Positions 3,300-52,050 of a stretch of DNA of 64,000 nucleotides are shown in pieces; position 1 is the first letter of the stretch; every line of letters begins with the position of its first letter. Source of the stretch: an uncultured Planctomycetota bacterium (GTDB taxonomy: Bacteria; JAJVIF01; JAPKYR01). The notes under the pieces were generated by a model, which worked only from the letters and a program-made list of their open reading frames with translations, searched no databases and was not told the DNA's origin. A program made the position numbers and the translations under genes. The DNA lies in assembly GCA_964354375.1 (NCBI GenBank), contig CAYGZQ010000002.1, positions 44,866 through 108,865 on the forward strand, read 5' to 3'.

Positions 3300-3444
3300 G
3301 TGCTTGCGGGGGCGAGAGTCCCGGGTGCAATTTTACACCAAAGGACGTCGAGATGCCGGATAGCGGCTGTCCGGGGCGGTCCGGCTTGCGCGATATTCAC
3401 AAACGTAATGGGAAATTTCCCTGATTTTCTTCGGTCAATCGGCC

Positions 3445-3473
3445 TTGACGAGACCGCATTCGTGAAGTATATA
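3445..3473 (+). promoter_or_regulatory. Candidate sigma70-type promoter (TTGACG - 17 nt - TATATA) upstream of rpoD
   Basis: -35 at 3445-3450, 17-nt spacer, -10 at 3468-3473, in the 400-bp divergent intergenic region between rsmI and rpoD. Confidence 0.4.
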
Positions 3474-3698
3474 ACACTTGGCTGCTAACAGAGGCGTGAA
3501 CTTGATGAGGGAAAAGGAATGGAGGCTTATGCTCTGCCGGACATAGCGGGTTGATGTGTGGCAGAGCCGCCACGGTGAGGCGCGCGAGAAGCCTTACCGA
3601 TTTTTTTTGCGCATCATGCATCTTTTGGGCAAAACAGCATCTAAGAGAATAGAAGGCGGCTAGGCCTGACCGCTGAGAAATAGCCAAAAAACGCAACG

Positions 3699-4934
3699 GT
3701 GGTGATAACCTCTATGCCCGAACGGCCCGTGCTGGTTCCTCAGAAAGTATGTAAAGACGAGCGCTACAAGGACCTGTTGGCTCGTGGACGACATAAGGGG
3801 TGGCTGACACGTAAGGAAGTTCGCGACACTGTCAGACAATGCCAGAGGGTCAGTCGCGAAGAGCTCGAAGCGATCTTCGAGTCCATCGAGAAGAAGCGAA
3901 TCGACCTCCTTCTGCGTCATCCGACTAACGGCAAGAAGGGCAACGGGGGTCTGAAGGTCAAGGGCAGGAAGACTGCTGAGGGGACCAACTCCGTCAAGAC
4001 TCCCCGACTCCGCTCGGCGCTTGACAAGCGGAAGTCCGACCCCAGGCATCTCCTGGACAGCGATGTCAAGTTCTCCCACGACATCAAGATTGACGATTCG
4101 GTCAAGATCTATCTTAGGGAGATCGGATGGGTTCCCCTGCTCAGGCCCGATGAGGAGGTCCATCTCGCCAAGATCATTGCCGGCGACAACTCCAGCGACC
4201 ACGAAAAGGATATAGCCCGCAAGAAGCTGACCACGGCGAACCTCAGGCTTGTCGTGTCCATAGCGAAGAAATACAAGACCCAGGGTCTGAGCTTCCTGGA
4301 CCTGGTACAGGAAGGCAACCTGGGCCTGATGCGCGCGGTACAGAAGTTCGACCACACCAAGGGTTTCAAATTCTCCACGTACGCCACCTGGTGGATCAGG
4401 CAGGCCATTACCCGCGCGCTTGCCGACCAGGAGGACATCATCCGCAAGCCGGTCCATATCGTCGAGAAAATCAACAAGCTCAAGAAGGCGTCCAGCGAGA
4501 TCTCCCAGAAAAAGGGCACCGAGCCGACCCCGTACGAGCTCGGCAGCAAGATGAACATGCCCGCAGCCAAGGTGCAGGAGATCCGCAAGATCGCGCAGAG
4601 ACCTATCTCATTGGAGACCCCCATCGGCGAGGATGAAAACTCCCAGCTTCAGCATTTCCTCGAGGACCAGCGAATACCTAACCCCGACAGCTCCGCGATG
4701 AAGCATCTTCTCAGGGAAGAGCTCGAGAAAGTGCTCAATACGCTTTCGGATCGCGAGCGTCGGGTGATCCGGAGAAGGTTCGGATTCGATGACGGGCACT
4801 ACTACACGCTGGAGGAGGTCGGACGGGAGTTCGGCGTCACCCGCGAGCGCATCAGGCAGATCGAGGCCAAAGCGCTGAGGAGACTGAAAAGTCAGAAGCG
4901 GAGCGTACGGGTGAAGGACTTCCTGGACCTGTGA
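3699..4934 (+). CDS. rpoD: RNA polymerase primary sigma factor (sigma-70 family)
   Basis: Regions 1.2-4 conserved: [101 protein letters not shown]. The start could be ATG 3714 instead. Confidence 0.9.
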
Positions 4935-9471: not shown

Positions 9472-9665
9472 AAGAGGAATTCGAAATCAGGATCAGCAAG
9501 GAAGGGGAGCTCAAGGTGGTCGCGAAGGGGTTCAGGGGGGCCGAGTGCGAGGTTCCGCTGAAGAAGATCCAGAAGATTCTGAATGCCGAGACCGCCCGAA
9601 TCGAGCACACGGAGGAATTCAGCAAGATAACGGGCGAGGTCGAAGCGAAGATCAAGAAGAAATGA
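9462..9665 (+). CDS. Small conserved hypothetical protein, DUF2997-like (tentative)
   Basis: 67 aa, MAIKEEFEIRISKEGELKVVAKGFRGAECEV... matches the pattern remembered for DUF2997. Start overlaps the previous gene (translational coupling). Confidence 0.4.
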   Translation: MAIKEEFEIRISKEGELKVVAKGFRGAECEVPLKKIQKILNAETARIEHTEEFSKITGEVEAKIKKK

Positions 9666-9740
9666 GTCGGAGCGAACGATGAGCGCCATGGAAGTCCGAA
9701 ACACGAGGACGTGTTCGGCACAGGACGCATCCGGCCGTTG

Positions 9741-11789
9741 CTACAGCCTGAAGATCCGGAGCCCGTTCATGTCGTCCCACATATACGCGTAGCCCCCCGA
9801 CACGGCCAGCCTGGAAGAGAGCACCTGCCAGGTCATCATCTCATCCGTCGTGAACGGACTCTCGACCGCAGATTCGGGAAGATCGATCCTGACTGCTCTG
9901 ACAGCCCGATCGCCCGGGGCGTCCGAATACGCATACCGGTCCGATAGGGCTACCGACCATCCCCACGGAGAAAGGGTGTTCACTGTGGACGCCGATTCAG
10001 GGGGGTCGATGTCAACAATGTGAAGCAGGGAGCCTGCCGGCCCCCACCCAAGATCGCCGATCACTGTGCACGCAGCGTACGCGTATCCGTCCGAAATGAC
10101 CAAGTCACCAGTCACTTCCGGCCACACGATGTCGTTCACAACGGATGCCGATTCCGGAGGATCGATGTCGATTATCTGAAGGCCGCCTCCGAAGAACTCT
10201 GCGCCTTCCTGCCAGCACATTCCCCCCACATACGCATAGCCCCCCGACACAGCCAGTGTAGAGGAAAATCCAGGAATGGCCACGCTCTTGATCACCGAGG
10301 CAGACTCGGGTGGGTCGACGTCGACTATCTGGAGCCAGGACTCTCCCGGTTTCTCCGGACCGAACTCTCCGGACCCTGCAGCCGCAACATACGCGTACCC
10401 ACCCGACGCCGCCACTCCCATCGAACCCCCGGAGATTTCAACGGTCTTCACTATGGATGCAGATTCGGGAGGATCAATGTCGATTATCTGGAGGCGGAAC
10501 TCCGTCAAGACATCGGGATCCGGACCTCCCCCCACACTGACAAACGCATAGCCACCCGACACAGCCAGACCGATGGCTCCCGCCGCATCAACGATCTTCA
10601 CTATCGACGGAGATTCCGGAGCATCGAGATCCAGTATCACAAGACCGGACTCTGTGTCCGCAACATACGCGTAGCCTTCCGAGACCGTGACGTCCGCGAC
10701 TGACCACGACTTGTCCACGCAGGCGACGATTGATGTAGATTCGGGAGGATCGATATCGACCACATTGAGACCGGCAGCCATGTCGGCCACATACGCGTAA
10801 CCCCCTTCGATCGTCACATCCACCGCAGAGGGCATGTCGACGGTCTTCACGACCGACGCAGAATCGGGAGGATCTATATCGAGTACCTGGAGGCCGAGCT
10901 CTCTATTCGCCACGTACGCGTAGCCTCCCGACACTGCTACGCAAACAGCGTCTCCCAGGGTCTCCACGGTTTTCACAATCGAGGCAGACTCGGGAGCGCC
11001 GATATCGACAATCTGGAGGCCTTCATCGAAGTCCGCCACATAGGCGTAAGGCCCTGATATGTCCACACCTTGGGCGAGCCCCGTTGTGGGCACAGTCGTC
11101 AATATCGACGCGGACTCGGGAGAATCGATGTCCACAATCTGAAGTCCGCCGAGACCGTCGGCCACATAAGCGTATTCGCCCGACACGGCTACACTTTGGG
11201 CTATGGCCGGCATATCAACTGTTTTCACGACCGACGCAGACTCGGGAGGATCAACGTCGATTAAGTGGAGTCCGCCGACGCCGGAGACCACAAAAGCGTA
11301 CCCATCCGACACGTCCACACCCTGGGCGACCACCGGTGCAGAGATGATTTTCACTACGGACGCAGACTCGGGAGGATAAATGTCAACAATCACAAGACCC
11401 GAGAAACCCGCCGCAACATACGCATAGCCACCCGATACCGCTACCCCGATGGCCTCTCCCGGCGAGGTCTCGCCGCCGGGCTCCATCGGCATGACGACTT
11501 TGTTGACCCAGACAGGGTTCGATGGGTCGGAAATGTCGAAGATGTGAAGGCCGTTTGGGCCACCGGCCACGTAGCAGAGGGTCCCGTCGACGCACATGGA
11601 CCTTACCGAGATGTTCAGCCACGGAGGGGTGATATCCACTGGGTTGAAGGATGCCGCATCCTGCGGAGCTTCAGGCGAATCCGAGCCTCCGTACGCCCTG
11701 CCGGTGAAAGAAGGGCTCACCAGAATCAGCAAGAGGACCGCGGGCAGAATCGCAATTGCCCGAGTCGCGGCCAACCTGTTCTTTCTCAT
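9741..11789 (-). CDS. Secreted LVIVD-repeat beta-propeller protein
   Basis: Sec signal peptide MRKNRLAATRAIAILPAVLLLILVSPSF. More than 12 repeats of the GYAYVA...GLxIVDIDPPESASxV type (LVIVD repeat). ATG at 11789 preceded by GGGAGGA. Confidence 0.75.
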   Translation of the reverse strand: MRKNRLAATRAIAILPAVLLLILVSPSFTGRAYGGSDSPEAPQDAASFNPVDITPPWLNISVRSMCVDGTLCYVAGGPNGLHIFDISDPSNPVWVNKVVMPMEPGGETSPGEAIGVAVSGGYAYVAAGFSGLVIVDIYPPESASVVKIISAPVVAQGVDVSDGYAFVVSGVGGLHLIDVDPPESASVVKTVDMPAIAQSVAVSGEYAYVADGLGGLQIVDIDSPESASILTTVPTTGLAQGVDISGPYAYVADFDEGLQIVDIGAPESASIVKTVETLGDAVCVAVSGGYAYVANRELGLQVLDIDPPDSASVVKTVDMPSAVDVTIEGGYAYVADMAAGLNVVDIDPPESTSIVACVDKSWSVADVTVSEGYAYVADTESGLVILDLDAPESPSIVKIVDAAGAIGLAVSGGYAFVSVGGGPDPDVLTEFRLQIIDIDPPESASIVKTVEISGGSMGVAASGGYAYVAAAGSGEFGPEKPGESWLQIVDVDPPESASVIKSVAIPGFSSTLAVSGGYAYVGGMCWQEGAEFFGGGLQIIDIDPPESASVVNDIVWPEVTGDLVISDGYAYAACTVIGDLGWGPAGSLLHIVDIDPPESASTVNTLSPWGWSVALSDRYAYSDAPGDRAVRAVRIDLPESAVESPFTTDEMMTWQVLSSRLAVSGGYAYMWDDMNGLRIFRL

Positions 11790-13629: not shown

Positions 13630-13760
13630 GTCTTCCCCCATCTCTCCTCGAGGTGCTGAGATTGTCTCAGAAGGAGGAAAGGGGGTCAACAGGTGGGCAA
13701 AGCATCCAAGGCCGAATGTAAGAGACTGTCGAAAAAGTCCAAGATATGGACAATCCGCAT

Positions 13761-13829
13761 GTGGGGCAGGCTTTCCAGCCTGCCATTCATGCGGTGTTCA
13801 AAGACGGCAGGCTGGAAAGCCTGCCCCAC
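13761..13829. repeat. Intergenic hairpin repeat (perfect 24-bp inverted repeat GTGGGGCAGGCTTTCCAGCCTGCC / GGCAGGCTGGAAAGCCTGCCCCAC, 21-nt loop)
   Basis: Seen directly. Arms are themselves palindromic. The loop and flank (ATTCATGCGG, TTCAACAG, CGTAAGTAAGGGCGC) share modules with 5025-5272 and 16737-16823. Confidence 0.7.
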
Positions 13830-13889
13830 AAGGCGACTTCTTCAACAGCACCGTAAGTAAGGGCGCTTGCTGGGATAATCTGATATAAT

Positions 13890-16724: not shown

Positions 16725-16736
16725 TCGCCAGTGTAT

Positions 16737-16823
16737 CCAAGGCCCGAACGTAAGTGAGGGCGCATTCCTAATCGGCCAATATAGCTGCGGTTGACAGCGC
16801 CCTCACTGACGTTCGGGCCCTGG
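16737..16823. repeat. Intergenic hairpin (27-bp arms CCAAGGCCCGAACGTAAGTGAGGGCGC / GCGCCCTCACTGACGTTCGGGCCCTGG) between convergent lipoprotein genes
   Basis: Seen directly. Arm sequence is related to 5022-5040 and 13845-13866. It could act as a bidirectional terminator. Confidence 0.65.
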
Positions 16824-16841
16824 ATATGGATTCCGGGATGT

Positions 16842-22391: not shown

Positions 22392-22431
22392 TTAGTTCTC
22401 CGTATGTGGTGAAGATCAAGAAAAAGAAAGA

Positions 22432-22547
22432 CTAACCACGAAGACACTAAGGACACCAAGAACACAAAGAGGAAGTCAAGCTAGCGATGTCCGATTTCTC
22501 CCGTTCTTCTTTGTGTCCTTCGTGCCCTTAGTGTCTTCGTGGTTACT
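22432..22547. repeat. Long imperfect inverted repeat (~38-bp arms AACCACGAAGACACTAAGGACAC.../...GTGCCCTTAGTGTCTTCGTGGTT) in the intergenic region between the dehydratase small-subunit gene and the IDH-family gene
   Basis: Seen directly. AT-richer than the surroundings. It lies inside an apparent operon, so it may be an attenuator, RNA processing site or terminator. Confidence 0.55.
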
Positions 22548-22553
22548 CTTCTC

Positions 22554-35483: not shown

Positions 35484-35580
35484 TGCTGCCGCAATTTCGG
35501 TAGCAGCTACTTTTCGAAGACGAAAAGGTAGCAGCTACCGAAATCAGTCTTCGAAAAGCAGCTGCTACCGAAATCCGCCT
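35484..35580. repeat. Palindromic repeat family GTAGCAGCTAC-CTTTTCGAAGACGAAAAG-GTAGCAGCTACC (three GTAGCAGCTACCGAAATC-like units)
   Basis: Seen directly. A second copy is at 40118-40165. Confidence 0.65.
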
Positions 35581-36419: not shown

Positions 36420-36459
36420 GGTGAGACACCCATCCGCGCCCGCCGGAGCGGGCACGTAT

Positions 36460-36497
36460 GGGCGCCACCAGTATCGTGAACTCTCTGTGGCGCCCGT
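36460..36497. repeat. REP-like hairpin GGGCGCCACC...GTGGCGCCC
   Basis: Seen directly. Same GGCGCCAC stem motif as the terminal repeats of the RAYT element. Confidence 0.5.
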
Positions 36498-37524: not shown

Positions 37525-39231
37525 TTGCTGAAGGAGCTTTGCATACGGGATTTCAAGCTCCTGAGAGACGTGGATCTCAGATTCACGTCCGGCCTGACCG
37601 TTCTCACGGGCGAGACGGGCGCAGGGAAAACGCAATGCCTCGAAGCTCTGACGGCCGCTTTGGGAGCGAGGTCGGGCGACGACACGATCTCGAAGGACTC
37701 CGACAAGGCTGTCGTTACCGCGATCTTCGATCTTGGCGACCGGGCCGATGTCGCACTCACTCTGAAAAGGGGCGGCTGGCTCGACAACGACGAAACGGAG
37801 GTCGTGCTGGAGCGGACCATCGAGCGCGGCGGCCCGAGCAGGGGGCGTCTCAACGGCCGTCGAGTCCCCATCGGCACGCTGCAGGAAGTCTCCGACCGCC
37901 TCGTCGACCTCCTGGGTCAGAACGCGCGCGCCGACCTCCTCACTCGTCCGGCGCTCGAAATTCTCGACTCTCTCGGCGATGAATCCCACCAGAGCCACGT
38001 AGCCGCGGTCAGGAAAAATCACGCCGCATGGCAGGAGGCAAAAATCGCATATGAGCGGGAGGAGGCCGAGATCGAGCGGGCGAAGGAGCGTCGGGAGCTT
38101 GTCGAGTTCCAGTATTCAGAGCTTGAGAAAGCGGGCCTGAGAAAGGGCGAGGAGAAGGAGCTCACAAGAGAAGCCGAGCTTCTTGAGAGTGCGCGGGAGC
38201 GGATCGAGGAAGCTCTGAAGGCGGCATCGACACTGTCGGGCGAGACCGAAGGGGTTTCCAGCTCGAGGGATCTTCTTCAGGAAGCGCTCGACTCGATGGA
38301 GCACCTTGCGTCCGTGGACGCGGGTTTGAAGGGCGAGGCCTTGAGACTTCGCGAGATGGTGTTTCTCGCCGAGGAGCTTGCGGACACTCTCAGGCGCTAC
38401 GCGGAGGGGATAATAGACGATCCTGAGCGACGGTCGTGGGTCGAGGAAAGGCTCGGCGTGCTGCATCGTCTCGCCCGAAAGTACAAAATCGACGAGGCCG
38501 GACTGATCGAGCTTCGCGACAAGCTTGGGGAGGAACTCGAGAGGGTCACGAGCGCGTCCGACAGGCTCGGCAAGCTCGCGAAGGTGCGAGACGAAGCCCG
38601 AGACGAATATCTCAAGCAGGCCCGGACTCTGTCGAAGTTGAGAGAACGGCTCGGGAAGCGGATCTCCAAAGAGGTCAAAATACATCTCGCCGACCTCGAT
38701 CTGCCCAAGGCAACGTTCATTGCTGATTTGAAATCGGACCCGGACGATGAGAGCTCTTACAGGGCCGACGGAATCGACCGGGCCGAGCTTTTGATCGCGA
38801 CCAATCCGGCGCAGGAACCCGGTCCGCTCAAAAAGGTCGCCTCGGGCGGCGAGCTTTCCCGCCTTCTGATCGCACTCAAAACTGTGCTGGCGAAGCGCGA
38901 CAGGGTGCCGGTTTTGGTGTTCGACGAAGCTGAGGCCGGGATCGGGGGCGAGACCGCATTCAAGGTGGGAGAGAAACTCCTCGAGCTGAGCAAGAGCCAT
39001 CAACTGATACTCGTCAGCCATCTGCCGCAGATCGCGAGCCAGGGGGACGATCACTGGGTGATAGAGAAGGCGACGGTGAAATCCGACACGCGCGCTCTGG
39101 CAAGGAATGTCGCGGGCGAGGAGCGGGTGAAGGAAATCCAGCGTATGCTCGGCGCGCGCGGCGACCTCAAGGCGCTCGAAAAGCTCGCGCGCAGCTTCAT
39201 CAAGGGCACAAAACCCTCGACCTCACCCTGA
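37525..39231 (+). CDS. recN: DNA repair protein RecN
   Basis: N-terminal Walker A GETGAGKT, coiled-coil middle, C-terminal ASGGELSRLLIAL...LVFDEAEAGIGG. TTG start. Confidence 0.85.
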   Translation: MLKELCIRDFKLLRDVDLRFTSGLTVLTGETGAGKTQCLEALTAALGARSGDDTISKDSDKAVVTAIFDLGDRADVALTLKRGGWLDNDETEVVLERTIERGGPSRGRLNGRRVPIGTLQEVSDRLVDLLGQNARADLLTRPALEILDSLGDESHQSHVAAVRKNHAAWQEAKIAYEREEAEIERAKERRELVEFQYSELEKAGLRKGEEKELTREAELLESARERIEEALKAASTLSGETEGVSSSRDLLQEALDSMEHLASVDAGLKGEALRLREMVFLAEELADTLRRYAEGIIDDPERRSWVEERLGVLHRLARKYKIDEAGLIELRDKLGEELERVTSASDRLGKLAKVRDEARDEYLKQARTLSKLRERLGKRISKEVKIHLADLDLPKATFIADLKSDPDDESSYRADGIDRAELLIATNPAQEPGPLKKVASGGELSRLLIALKTVLAKRDRVPVLVFDEAEAGIGGETAFKVGEKLLELSKSHQLILVSHLPQIASQGDDHWVIEKATVKSDTRALARNVAGEERVKEIQRMLGARGDLKALEKLARSFIKGTKPSTSP

Positions 39232-39250
39232 AGACGCGCGCTGCGCGCCG

Positions 39251-39937
39251 GGTGGCGCCCACAGCCGGAGCGTCAGCGTAGGCTGTGGGTGAGCCCAGAT
39301 CACAGTCCTTTCAGTATCTCCAAATCCAACGGGATTTCCCCCTTCTCACCAACCAGCCATCCACGCGCGCTTCCCCATTTCCATTCTGTCGCTGTCATCA
39401 CCAAACCCTTCTTCACCGGATTATCGTGTATATATTGCACTTCAGCAAGAATGGCATCCTGTGTCCTCAGGTTTCTGTCATAGCCCCCTCCATCCTGCCA
39501 GAATCTGTATCTCGGTCTTGCTAAGCCCGTCTCGATACGCGCCAACAGCTTCGGACTTCTCTCTCTGATGACTGGAATCGCCTTGTTAGCCGACGATTGC
39601 TTGATTGACCTGAGTATGTCAGAGATTGAATACTCCTCCCGCCTCGGGAATATCAACAGGTGAACATGATCCGGCATGAACAGCCATGCCACAATTGCGA
39701 AATCATGCAGACGCCCCGCTCGTATTATAGCCTGCGCCACAATCTGCTTTGTGAAGGCATATTTCAAAAGGGGAAGATTCCTGAAGCACGAAAAATTGAG
39801 CGCGTGCGCGTGGCCTGGGACATTGAAATGCTGATACTTCCTGCCAAGCTCATTCGAAGGTCTCATAGGTAGTATTATATATCTTCTATTGAGGTCACCC
39901 ACAGCCTACGCTGACGCTCCGGCTGTGGGCGCCACCC
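39251..39937. mobile_element. Compact RAYT/IS200-like element: tyrosine (HUH) transposase gene flanked by perfect 42-bp terminal inverted repeats, each internally hairpin-forming
   Basis: Left end GGTGGCGCCCACAGCCGGAGCGTCAGCGTAGGCTGTGGGTGA (39251-39292) is the exact reverse complement of the right end 39896-39937. GC of the interior is about 50%, against about 61% for the flanks. Confidence 0.8.
39300..39902 (-). CDS. REP-associated tyrosine transposase (RAYT) / IS200-family TnpA (HUH Y1 transposase)
   Basis: HUH motif HVHLLI and catalytic Tyr region EVQYIHDNP. About 200 aa. Confidence 0.75.
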   Translation of the reverse strand: MGDLNRRYIILPMRPSNELGRKYQHFNVPGHAHALNFSCFRNLPLLKYAFTKQIVAQAIIRAGRLHDFAIVAWLFMPDHVHLLIFPRREEYSISDILRSIKQSSANKAIPVIRERSPKLLARIETGLARPRYRFWQDGGGYDRNLRTQDAILAEVQYIHDNPVKKGLVMTATEWKWGSARGWLVGEKGEIPLDLEILKGL

Positions 39938-40067
39938 CGAGAATAAGTCATCGATGTCCGGGTGCCCGTCACAAGCGTAGCTTGTGGCTGTTTTGTCCTA
40001 TGTAAAGAGTCCCGACAGTCGCAGCCTCCGCTAACGGGGTTGTTGAAAAAGTCGAATTTGTAAAGGC

Positions 40068-40086
40068 ACGGCATGCCGTGCCCTTT
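40068..40086. repeat. Short perfect palindrome GGCACGGCATGCCGTGCC (second copy at 51044-51062)
   Basis: Seen directly in two intergenic locations. Confidence 0.6.
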
Positions 40087-40117
40087 CTGATGCCGAATGA
40101 ATGGCAGGCTGGTAGCT

Positions 40118-40165
40118 GCCGGTAGCAGCTACTTTTTCGAAGACGAAAAAGATAGCAGCTACCGG
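40118..40165. repeat. Second copy of the GTAGCAGCTAC / CTTTTTCGAAGACGAAAAAG palindromic repeat
   Basis: Matches 35496-35540 nearly exactly. Confidence 0.65.
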
Positions 40166-40277
40166 CGCCACCCGGAAAGCACCCGCGCTTGTATGATTTC
40201 CCCGGCTGGAGTATGTTAAAGGATTACACGCGGGCAGGGACAATACTGCATGAGCTTTGCGCAGAAGGAACCGTAAG

Positions 40278-42905
40278 TTGGAGACGTCAAGGCTTAGAGA
40301 GCTGTTCATCGACTTCTTCCGCTCGAAGGATCACCACATAGAGCCGTCGGCGAGCCTTGTTCCGCCCGCGGACGACCGCTCGCTTCTCCTCATAAACGCG
40401 GGGATGGCACCGTTGAAACAGTATTTTCTGGGTATGGCGAAACCGCCGTCCACGCGCATCGCGTCGTGCCAGAGATGCCTCCGCACGAACGATATCGACG
40501 AGGTCGGCAGGACTCCCCGACATCTGACGCTCTTCGAGATGCTCGGCAATTTCTCGTTCGGCGATTATTTCAAGAAAGAGATCATCGTCTGGTCATGGGA
40601 ATTCGTGCGCGACTGGCTGGACATCCCCGAGGACCGGATGAGGGTGAGCGTTCACGAGAAGGACGATGAGGCCTACGGAATCTGGGAGAAAGAGGTCGGC
40701 GTAAGACGAGACTGGATTTATCGACTCGGCGACAATGATAACTTCTGGTTCATGGCTGAGACCGGACCGTGCGGTCCGGACAGCGAGATTTTCTACGATC
40801 TGGGCGAGGACCTGGGCGCTGACCTCACCCCCGAAACCGGCGGCGACAGATGGGTGGAAATCTGGAACCTCGTTTTCACGCAGTTCGACCGTCAGCCGGA
40901 CGGGACTCTGATCCCGCTGCCCAAGAAAAACGTGGACACCGGCATGGGCCTCGAAAGAACCGCCATGGCGCTGCAGGGAAAGCAGTCGGTGTTCGAGGCC
41001 GACTGTTTCGCCCCGATTATCGGGACTTTCCGCAACGACACTCCCGCGGAGATCCTCGAAAGCCGAAGTTACATCAAGGCCGGAATCAACTCGCTCTATG
41101 TCGTGGCGGATCATGTCCGCGCAGTGACGATGCTGATCGCGGACGGCGTGTATCCGGGCAACGAGGGTCGCGGGTATGTTCTGAGGCGATTATTGAGACG
41201 CGCGCTGGTGCACTTGAGAAGACTCGGTCAGCCGGAGGGCGGGCTACTGAAGGCGTTTCCCATCGTGCTCGATCTTCTCGGCGAAACCTACCCTCTTCTT
41301 GTGGAGCGCCGGGAGCATATCGAGAAGCTGGTCACGGTCGAGGAGGACAATTTCCTGAAGACCCTGGGCGCAGGCGTGGCGCGACTCGAAAGCGCAATAG
41401 AGAACCTGTCCCAAGCGAATGTGATCCCCGGCGAGATCGCGTTCGAGATGTTCGACACGTACGGTGTGCCGCTCGATGTGACGGTCGAGATGGCGCAGGC
41501 TCGCGGCATGAAGGTCGACGAAAGAGGCTATCAGGAAGCGCTGGATGGAGCGCGCAAACGCAGCCGGGTGGTTACCGAGGAACTCCTGGGCGCCGATCAG
41601 GATGCTCGCCATGCCGTTCAGACCACCGGCAAGACCGAGTTCACCGGCTACGGGGAGCTCGACGAAACCGCCACTTTGGTCGAGTACAATCCCGAGCATG
41701 GTTTCGTTCTGCTCGACCGTACGCCTTTCTATGCGGAGAAGGGCGGACAGGTCGGGGACACGGGAAAGATCCGATTCAATGGCGGCGAGCTCACTGTGGT
41801 CGACACGCAGTATGTCGGGGATGTCGTGGTGCACAAAATCGATCCCTCCAAGACCGAGGGGGACCCGTCGGCGATCAAGCCGGGCGACCCGGTTGAGGCA
41901 ATCGTGGATGGGAACCGCCGTCGCGCCATCCGTCGCGCTCATACGGCCACTCATCTCCTTCACGCGGCGCTGAGGCATGTTCTGGGCGAGCATGTACATC
42001 AGGCCGGATCGGTTGTCGAGCCGGACCGCCTGAGGTTCGATTTCTCTCACTTCCAGCCGCTGACCAGGGAGGAGGTCCGAAAAATCGAGGACTGGGCGAA
42101 CGAGAGAGTGTTTTCGGAAATCAGTGTTCATTGCAGGGAAGTGCCGTACGATGAGGCGGTGAAAGCGGGCGCGATGGCGCTGTTCGGCGAGAAGTACGGT
42201 GAGAGGGTGCGCATGGTCTGGGTGGGCGAGCATGAAGACATGCCTGTCAGGGGGAGATCGGAGACGATCGAGCTTTGCGGCGGAACGCACGTGGACAATA
42301 CGGGCGTTATCGGGATGATCAAGGTGATCGGCGAGGAGTCGGTGGCGAGCGGGGTAAGGCGTATCGAGGCGGTCACGGGTCGACGGGCGTACGAGCTTGC
42401 GCAGGGCGAAGATGCAACCCTTCGTGTAATCTCGGATGAGCTGCGAGTGCCGCTAACCTCTATCGAGCGCGGCGTCGCCAGGCTTGTCGAAAACATGAAG
42501 CGTCTGGACAAAGAAAAAAAGGACCTGGAGCAGAGACTGATAAACGGTCAGACGGGAAACGTCTCCGAGCAGGTCTCGATCGGATCGGCTACGGCGGTTA
42601 TTTTTCCGGCCCAGACACTGGCACCCGACGCTGTGGGGAAAATGCTCGATCGGGCTGTCGAGAAGGAAGCGGTCGTGATCGCGTTCGCAGTCACTTCTTA
42701 CGAGGACAAAGGCACGTTGCTGATAAGCTGCTCAAAAGCGGCGGTAAATGCGGGTTATCATGCGGGAAACCTTGTGAAGGCGGTGTCGGAGTCGATGGGC
42801 GGTCGAGGTGGCGGCAAGGCTTCATTTGCGCGCGGCGGTGTCGATGCATCAAAGTATGAAGAAGGCAAAGCGGCTTTCCTGAAGGCGCTAGACCTCACCC
42901 CCTGA
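40278..42905 (+). CDS. alaS: Alanine--tRNA ligase
   Basis: LRELFIDFFRSKDHHIEPSASLVP, TNAGM-like block LINAGMAP, FEMLGNFSFGDYFK, editing-domain HTATHLLHAAL, C-terminal DHHA1. TTG start after a GAAGGA RBS. Confidence 0.9.
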   Translation: METSRLRELFIDFFRSKDHHIEPSASLVPPADDRSLLLINAGMAPLKQYFLGMAKPPSTRIASCQRCLRTNDIDEVGRTPRHLTLFEMLGNFSFGDYFKKEIIVWSWEFVRDWLDIPEDRMRVSVHEKDDEAYGIWEKEVGVRRDWIYRLGDNDNFWFMAETGPCGPDSEIFYDLGEDLGADLTPETGGDRWVEIWNLVFTQFDRQPDGTLIPLPKKNVDTGMGLERTAMALQGKQSVFEADCFAPIIGTFRNDTPAEILESRSYIKAGINSLYVVADHVRAVTMLIADGVYPGNEGRGYVLRRLLRRALVHLRRLGQPEGGLLKAFPIVLDLLGETYPLLVERREHIEKLVTVEEDNFLKTLGAGVARLESAIENLSQANVIPGEIAFEMFDTYGVPLDVTVEMAQARGMKVDERGYQEALDGARKRSRVVTEELLGADQDARHAVQTTGKTEFTGYGELDETATLVEYNPEHGFVLLDRTPFYAEKGGQVGDTGKIRFNGGELTVVDTQYVGDVVVHKIDPSKTEGDPSAIKPGDPVEAIVDGNRRRAIRRAHTATHLLHAALRHVLGEHVHQAGSVVEPDRLRFDFSHFQPLTREEVRKIEDWANERVFSEISVHCREVPYDEAVKAGAMALFGEKYGERVRMVWVGEHEDMPVRGRSETIELCGGTHVDNTGVIGMIKVIGEESVASGVRRIEAVTGRRAYELAQGEDATLRVISDELRVPLTSIERGVARLVENMKRLDKEKKDLEQRLINGQTGNVSEQVSIGSATAVIFPAQTLAPDAVGKMLDRAVEKEAVVIAFAVTSYEDKGTLLISCSKAAVNAGYHAGNLVKAVSESMGGRGGGKASFARGGVDASKYEEGKAAFLKALDLTP

Positions 42906-42947
42906 CCCCCTCTCCGCAATTGCGGAGAGGGGGCTAGGGGGTGAGGT
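42893..42947. repeat. REP-like perfect palindrome CTCACCCCCTGACCCCCTCTCCGCAA/TTGCGGAGAGGGGGCTAGGGGGTGAGG overlapping the alaS stop codon
   Basis: Seen directly. Likely acts as a transcript-end hairpin (no T-tract). Confidence 0.7.
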
Positions 42948-51950: not shown

Positions 51951-52050
51951 ACCCTTAAGAATCGTCCTCGATTCTTAAGGGTGCTGCTATGGAACGAGGC
52001 ATATCAAAGCCACCCATAAGAGGCCGGGAAGCCTCTTATGGGTGCCACCC
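51951..52050. repeat. Two adjacent REP-like hairpins with GTGGCACCC bases (GCACCCTTAAGAATCG/CGATTCTTAAGGGTGC and GCCACCCATAAGAGGC/GCCTCTTATGGGTGCCACC)
   Basis: Seen directly, immediately upstream of the AT-rich island. Confidence 0.65.

Follow-up and report, generated by a model that had tools for sequence, protein, structure and literature searches.

The locus between recN and alaS raises the question of what kind of element it holds: a short transposase-like gene, enclosed by exact inverted repeats, could be an insertion sequence, the remains of one, or part of a system in which the gene serves a family of repeats. We analysed the locus within the whole 64-kb stretch of DNA presented above, which we refer to as the window. 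A first-pass annotation had placed the gene between recN and alaS, and both neighbors were recognized by their domains (SMC_N for recN, whose homologues are named RecN, and tRNA-synt_2c, 576 bits, for alaS); an NAD kinase gene lies upstream. That annotation had also proposed a REP-RAYT-REP (REPtron-like) architecture, and this architecture recurred at every homologous locus examined. The unit is very probably a REPtron, that is, a class-2 Y1 HUH gene (RAYT, or TnpA_REP) between two inverted cognate REPs. Earlier work (PMC6006769, PMC8266576) describes how REPtrons are built, their GT[AG]G foot, and the chemistry of cleavage. The features of the locus are collected in Table 1.

Table 1. Positions of the RAYT unit and of related repeats in the 64-kb window
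Feature	Position	Strand	Description
Solo REP-like element	36430..36480	-	TGGTGGCGCC, imperfect 13-bp hairpin, GGTG; upstream of the NAD kinase gene
Segment differing from the close relative L038	39236..39957		722 bp, against an unrelated 45 bp in L038
Left REP	39250..39292	+	Foot GGGTGG, stem 39256-39266 pairing with 39281-39291, then A; arm similarity continues to 39297
RAYT (TnpA_REP) gene	39300..39866	-	188 aa from the ATG at 39866; stop codon at 39300-39302
Codon of Tyr145 (in YIHDNP), predicted catalytic Tyr	39432..39434	-	Invariant in 35 homologues; aligns with Y115 of 4ER8
Codons of the HUH motif, H67-V68-H69 (CAT GTT CAC)	39660..39668	-	H67 and H69 invariant; align with HMH of 4ER8
Right REP	39895..39937	-	Exact reverse complement of the left REP; 28 nt upstream of the RAYT ATG
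REP-like variant	39958..39991	+	GGGTGCCCGTCACAAGC-GTA-GCTTGTGGC; inverted relative to the right REP, 20 nt away; also in L038 (2878-2911)
Third foot copy fused to a different long hairpin	40108..40176	-	Foot CCGGGTGGCGCC (40164-40175); hairpin of the GGTAGCTGC family
Solo REP-like element	52011..52050	-	Frame GGGTGGCACC, hairpin, and GGTG shared with the REP; stem CATAAGAGGC differs

Inverted REP hairpins flank a single gene

A repeat search of the whole window identified two inverted arms of 48 nt (39250-39297 and 39890-39937) that are 96% complementary. Their perfect part is 43 nt long (39250-39292 and 39895-39937), with no outward extension; the exact 42-bp inverted repeats first described from position 39251 were thus essentially right. 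Each arm opens with GGGTGGCG and has the form CCCACAGCC-N14-GGCTGTGGG. Allowing up to 3 mismatches, this pattern occurs at only 2 places in the 64-kb window, namely, the two arms, where 0.01 would be expected from shuffled sequence. A hairpin had been proposed inside each repeat, and the 43-mer arm, folded as single-stranded DNA, indeed formed an 11-bp stem (-13.1 kcal/mol; z = -3.2) containing one G.T pair and closing a 14-nt loop; none of 200 shuffles folded as well. GTGG, at 39252-39255, abuts the stem on its 5' side, in the position of a GT[AG]G foot, and the feet of the left and right REPs both face away from the RAYT gene. The gene therefore has an inverted REP hairpin on either side, as a REPtron does, with perfect arms of 43 nt. 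The left hairpin starts 19 nt past the recN stop codon and may also be a transcript-end structure.

One minus-strand open reading frame lies between the arms. The first-pass annotation had assigned it a HUH transposase of about 200 aa; the HUH and Tyr residues were confirmed, and the length was revised, because a 200-aa reading begins only at a GTG within the right arm. The ATG at 39866 gives 188 aa, and this start agrees with that of P0001, a database gene call with 100% identity, as well as with the N termini of homologues. A scan for sigma-70 promoters yielded nothing convincing for the RAYT gene: a TATAAT is located 7 nt upstream of the ATG, with no -35 box at proper spacing.

The REP-RAYT-REP layout is retained in homologous loci

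We compared the unit with five homologous loci whose RAYT proteins are 46 to 76% identical to that of the window. All five had the same layout of foot, hairpin, gene, and inverted copy. At 76% protein identity (L027, L028, and L031), the arms were perfect over 43 nt and differed from those of the window in the loop only. At 67% (L026), perfect arms of 41 nt were accompanied by two further copies downstream. At 58% (L032), there was a compensatory C-G to T-A change between the two arms, and at 55% (L029), the perfect arms were 44 nt long, with stems CCTACAG/CTGTAGG. The most distant locus, from Zixibacteria (L043; 46%), had retained the foot GGGTGGC with new stems, TCCCAAA/TTTGGGA. The arms of L026, L027, and L029 were 100% complementary. 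Counting the window together with the five homologous loci, the foot GGGTG[G/C]C was present on both flanks in 6 of 6 cases, although L029 has GTGC rather than GTGG. Canonical REPs are defined by a GT[AG]G foot (PMC6006769); since the foot GGGTG[G/C]C contains GTGG, it fits this definition.

In an alignment of ten distinct repeats, 96.4% of stem cells were paired, with double changes at 3 pairs. Only 2 of 500 shuffles reached the observed values, and slid controls paired at 25 to 46%. We concluded that the stem pairing of the repeat is held by compensatory changes between homologous loci.

DNA similarity between the window and the homologous loci ended precisely at the outer arm ends, indicating that the inherited module is REP-gene-REP. 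The neighboring genes differed at every homologous RAYT locus.

Two of these loci carried additional repeats. On L027, the stretches 9622-9644, 9653-9682, and 9751-9770 carry versions of the repeat that lack the hairpin, GGGTGGCGCCCA(CA)-A-TGGGTGA, plus two tandem GGGTGGCGCCTAAAT units. By their look, the stem-loop core has been removed from these versions, which could be processing footprints. L029 has a second Y1_Tnp gene (171 aa; 3520-4035), 6 kb from the 55% homologue. The flanks of that gene are inverted arrays of a tandem repeat of about 19 nt, TTTCAGAGACACGAACG (3348-3495 and 4072-4282), and not single hairpins.

Copies of the repeat occur away from the gene in metagenomes

In a REPtron, the cognate REPs are expected in many extragenic copies across the same genome, and we looked for such copies at three scales. 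In the 64-kb window, no further copy of the 43-nt repeat was found. A hairpin-pattern scan of the GTDB representatives, which do not include the source genome, returned 25 loci, about the number expected by chance; each had one match with an unrelated loop, and most were terminator-like. In metagenome Ga0315296, which holds the 76% homologue, solo copies of the repeat were present on four other contigs that carried no RAYT. These copies showed 0 to 3 differences, at loop positions, and were sited between long open reading frames; what ties them to the RAYT-bearing organism is a match in GC content (0.59 to 0.61) and the shared sample. In addition, two contigs from other samples (L034 and L036) had the L032-type repeat as an inverted doublet. 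From the solo copies and the doublets, we concluded that this repeat family does disperse.

The window also contains solo elements, at 52011-52050 and 36430-36480, that share the frame of the REP and have other stems (Table 1). The type found at 52011-52050 is also present in L039 (4313-4348), a relative with 74% RecN identity; it may be the repeat of another RAYT or represent a subfamily of the same one.

A close relative lacks the unit at the same site

The one unusual point of the locus is the absence of the unit from a very close relative at the same site. In this relative, a JGI contig (L038), RecN is 98% identical at the amino acid level, recN and alaS are 94% and 92% identical at the nucleotide level, and dS for recN is 0.24. 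Its recN-alaS spacer is 290 bp long and contains no RAYT. Homology between L038 and the window is lost 4 nt past the recN stop codon and regained at the REP-like variant at 39958. The 722-bp segment of the window that differs consists of the REP-RAYT-REP unit with unmatched flanks of 14 bp and 20 bp. The comparison shows no target duplication at the unit, and the short flanks do not match, so a clean insertion scar is not what separates the two genomes here. The window and L038 differ again farther along the spacer.

Because so close a relative lacks the unit, its gain or loss must have been recent. Both are compatible with the data, since no outgroup keeps recN beside alaS: at 74 to 75% RecN or AlaS identity, the two genes were not adjacent in any outgroup. 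One more-distant contig ends just past recN, in AT-rich sequence with no REP.

The 45 bp that L038 has at the RAYT-less site (2833-2877) form a GC-rich hairpin unlike the left hairpin of the window. They hold GCCGGAGCG, identical to part of the REP loop, plus GGGTGG-GAC-GGTGA. Either a degenerate repeat or a scar left by excision could account for this stretch, which is too short for a claim.

Base composition had been taken as a sign of recent acquisition. The compositional difference itself was borne out: the RAYT coding sequence has a GC content of 0.503, whereas the rest of the window has 0.59 and the surroundings have 59 to 62%, and GC3 is 0.58 for RAYT, 0.75 for recN, and 0.73 for alaS. 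However, the 76% homologue has a similar offset (0.509 versus 0.607) in its 60%-GC host, so low GC by itself is not diagnostic of recent acquisition; it may be a property of the gene lineage rather than a timestamp. RAYT homologues from hosts of 45 to 49% GC have the GC content of their hosts. Of the earlier proposal, then, a recent event stands, as gain or loss, on the evidence of L038, and GC as its proof does not.

Possible autonomous mobility of the unit

These observations bear on a different reading of the locus, in which the 688-bp block is an autonomous, IS-like mobile element that arrived horizontally, was inserted recently, and serves no dispersed repeats. The absence of the block from L038 speaks for such an element, but the two alleles differ by more than the block (14 and 20 bp of unmatched flank against 45 bp), and a target duplication is lacking. 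Likewise, the two arms match perfectly at this locus and at three homologous ones, and similarity between loci stops at the arm ends amid different neighbors; yet inverted, identical hairpin ends are unlike those of IS200/IS605 elements, which sit on one strand. The low GC3 of the gene would suit a foreign origin but is countered by the equal GC offset of the 76% homologue. The lack of a further repeat in 64 kb agrees with an element that serves none, whereas the metagenome of a relative has solo repeats. Copy number also argues against autonomous mobility: one copy is seen per locus or contig, the 64-kb window has a single RAYT copy, and P0001 is the sole member of its cluster, on 1 contig. 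Finally, plasmids and phages are almost devoid of the family. A tblastn search gave one 31% match among plasmids (a Persicobacter replicon) and none among phages; hence, there is no sign of a mobile vector. We consider it distinctly improbable that the unit is an autonomous element of this kind.

A REPtron might nevertheless change place as a whole. The presence and absence of the unit in two genomes that are about 6 to 8% diverged, the identical arms, the conservation ending at the arms, and the foreign-looking GC3 would all be explained if the entire REP-RAYT-REP block were still mobile or passed between closely related genomes. We regard this as possible, though rather unlikely.

The protein is a REP-associated tyrosine transposase

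The motifs HVHLLI and YIHDNP, which the first-pass annotation had picked out, are both present in the RAYT open reading frame. It had left two checks to be made on the protein, an alignment of the HUH and catalytic Tyr residues and a classification against RAYT groups and IS200/IS605 TnpA. In the alignment, H67, H69, Y145, the N149-P150 pair, and an FWQ motif were invariant across 35 homologues, as were G126, G127, G128, and D130 of a RFWQDGGGYDRN segment. The best sequence match in the PDB was 4ER8, E. coli TnpA_REP, in which HMH aligns with HVH and Y115 aligns with Y145. Y115F is the catalytic mutant of the E. coli enzyme (PMC8266576).

In the classification, the protein matched the NCBIfam equivalog model for REP-associated tyrosine transposases (NF047646, REP_Tyr_transpos) with 85.6 bits, above the cutoff of 80, over profile positions 2 to 145 of 146. 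The NCBIfam IS200 model (NF033573) gave 24 bits, below its cutoff of 55. The class-2 (TnpA_REP) signature is Y---NP, whereas IS200 and class 3 have Y---Q (PMC6006769); with YIHDNP, the protein carries the class-2 signature. An AlphaFold model (pLDDT, 91.4) had 4er8_A as its top structural match (E = 5e-10; TM, 0.66/0.74), and the TnpA structures of IS608 and ISDra2 followed at about 0.49/0.67, with an IS200 transposase also next. These results support a REP-associated tyrosine transposase rather than an IS200 TnpA.

A classical IS200/IS605 insertion sequence of the tnpA-only IS200 type would share the length of about 700 bp, the single Y1 HUH gene, the subterminal hairpins, and the match to Pfam Y1_Tnp, which the RAYT protein also shows. 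It is nonetheless contradicted by the outcomes of both family models, by the Tyr motif, by a protein of 188 aa that has additions to the core and a fold nearer to 4ER8 than to IS608, ISDra2, or IS200 TnpA, and by ends that are exact inverted repeats rather than distinct one-strand hairpins. Multiple copies were not seen, either. We judge that the unit is hardly such an insertion sequence.

The RAYT gene and the 76% homologue gave a dN/dS of 0.11, showing that the gene is maintained; the protein is under purifying selection. Consequently little credence can be given to a decaying relic, in which the repeats are gone from the genome and the hairpins merely end transcripts or stabilize mRNA for recN and the RAYT gene: the lack of another repeat in the window, the short distance from the recN stop codon to the left hairpin, and the different GC-rich hairpin of L038 at the same place would agree with it, but the open reading frame is intact with all invariant residues and low dN/dS, and the two arms are still perfectly identical, which is unexpected for unselected relics.

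Clustered at 50% identity, the RAYT family comprised 69 clusters when E was limited to 1e-30, 1057 with a limit of 1e-10, and at least 5000 with a limit of 0.001.

Proposed action of the enzyme on the repeat

If the REPtron acts as E. coli TnpA_REP and IS608 do (PMC8266576), its enzyme would bind the top strand of the repeat once this has folded in single-stranded form, as might happen at replication forks, and would read the hairpin together with the foot tetranucleotide. Cleavage would take place next to the repeat, with Tyr145 forming a 5'-phosphotyrosyl intermediate and a metal ion held by His67 and His69. Rejoining of the strands could then cause repeats to be spread or copied, deleted, or rearranged, and it would be the gene-flanking copies whose match to the enzyme is maintained. 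For this subfamily, where the enzyme cuts and what the GGGTGG foot does are predictions. Sequence-specific REP cleavage and strand transfer have been assayed for the Ec, Sm, and Mb enzymes (PMC8266576).

Comparison with known systems

The REPtron of E. coli K-12 (TnpA_REP, or RAYT yafM; Bertels Group 2, Quentin subclass 2.2; structure 4ER8) shares with the unit a Y1 HUH enzyme, whose HUH motif and Tyr align (Y145 with Y115) and which is the best match in the PDB by both sequence and fold, and a gene set between inverted REP hairpins whose foot is of the GT[AG]G type. The two proteins are about 22% identical over the structural alignment. Their motifs differ (DHVH, WQ, and YIHDNP here; DHLH, WE, and YIHYNP in E. 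coli), and the conserved RFWQDGGGYDRN segment is extra here. The foot is GGGTGG (GTGG) here and GTAG in the E. coli REP, and the stem is perfect except for one G.T, with a 14-nt loop, whereas the E. coli REP stem is bulged. The hosts, an uncultured deep lineage and a proteobacterium, differ as well.

Compared by description, Quentin subclasses 2.4, 2.6, and 2.7 (Bertels Groups 4 and 5) resemble the protein in Y---NP, WQ, and a size of about 180 to 210 aa. They occur in non-proteobacterial phyla and have REPtron-like flanks (PMC6006769). YIH[QN]NP and a C-terminal SS resemble subclass 2.6, and [ND]HVH resembles subclass 2.7; the motifs [DEN]HVH, WQ, YIH[ND]NP, and SS fit subclasses 2.4, 2.6, or 2.7 only loosely. 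Subclass 2.6 is described with atypical weak structures and no GT[AG]G, in contrast to the strong hairpin with GTGG found here. For subclass 2.4, insertions of REPs into the gene are on record; none were seen in the RAYT gene of the window.

In Marinomonas sp. MWYL1, the repeats of REPtrons Ma and Mb are concentrated beside tnpA_REP instead of being spread through the genome, and the authors read these systems as recently arrived (PMC8266576). The unit resembles them in having repeats near the tnpA_REP gene, a likeness drawn from the 64-kb window only. The Ma and Mb enzymes fall into other subclasses (Groups 2 and 3), and their foot is GTAG.

IS200/IS605 elements (the TnpA proteins of IS200, IS608, and ISDra2) have the same catalytic fold and presumably act on single-stranded hairpins by the same chemistry, the guide tetranucleotide lying on the 5' side of the hairpin. 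They differ in having Y---Q, shorter proteins, ends that are not inverted repeats, and many identical copies per genome.

We also considered a TIRYT (subclass 2.1), in which a RAYT-like gene is likewise bounded by terminal inverted repeats. TIRYTs have a C-terminal HTH domain (about 238 aa) and repeats of the form GGGG[AT][CG]A[CG] without REP hairpins (PMC6006769). The 188-aa protein ends shortly past the core, with no extra domain, and its arms are REP hairpins; a TIRYT is less likely than a REPtron.

Host lineage and significance

The host appears to be an uncultured, poorly sampled deep lineage, judging from its sequence relationships. Homologues of RecN and AlaS were about 57 to 63% identical inside the clade, with an abrupt fall to 38 to 46% for all else.

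To our knowledge, RAYT/REP systems have been studied almost entirely in Proteobacteria. The locus is an ordinary but clean REPtron, a known kind of element in a new host lineage; together with its relatives, it extends the REP-RAYT architecture to an uncultured deep-branching lineage and leaves current understanding unchanged. The frame of the repeat (foot GGGTGGC, variable stem, GGTG) persists into Zixibacteria-type hosts and is a concrete candidate for the recognition motif. The near-identical pair of genomes, one having the unit and the other lacking it, offers a natural way into the question of whether REPtrons travel as blocks. If they do so here, RAYTs of this subfamily would not be fully domesticated, and the GGGTGGC foot would be the subfamily's counterpart of the proteobacterial GTAG guide.

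Other palindromes in the window

Extra palindromes had been reported immediately downstream of the RAYT unit. They are real and are located at 39968-39988, 40062-40085, and 40108-40166. The last belongs to a hairpin family, GGTAGCTGC, with GGTAGCAGCTAC...TTTTCGAAGAC, that has copies at 35494-35574 and 40108-40166. L038 shares the hairpin at 40108-40166 but not the foot CCGGGTGGCGCC, so that the fusion of hairpin and foot is found in the window only. The recN-alaS spacer is a mosaic of several hairpin repeat types and resembles a BIME cluster. An Rfam scan of 38500-41000 gave only subthreshold matches, to RAGATH-24 (24.6 bits; gathering threshold, 45.3), Guanidine-II (19.7; threshold, 32), and one miRNA model, and these were rejected.

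Elsewhere, a family of long, near-perfect palindromes, CCTCACCCCCTNACCCCCTCTCC plus its complement, is present at 619-671 and 42892-42947, the second of which starts within the last codons of alaS. Further long inverted repeats, with arms of 25 to 47 nt that are 89 to 100% complementary and separated by short spacers, lie at 13760-13830, 16734-16826, and 22428-22550. The window is rich in distinct palindromic families.
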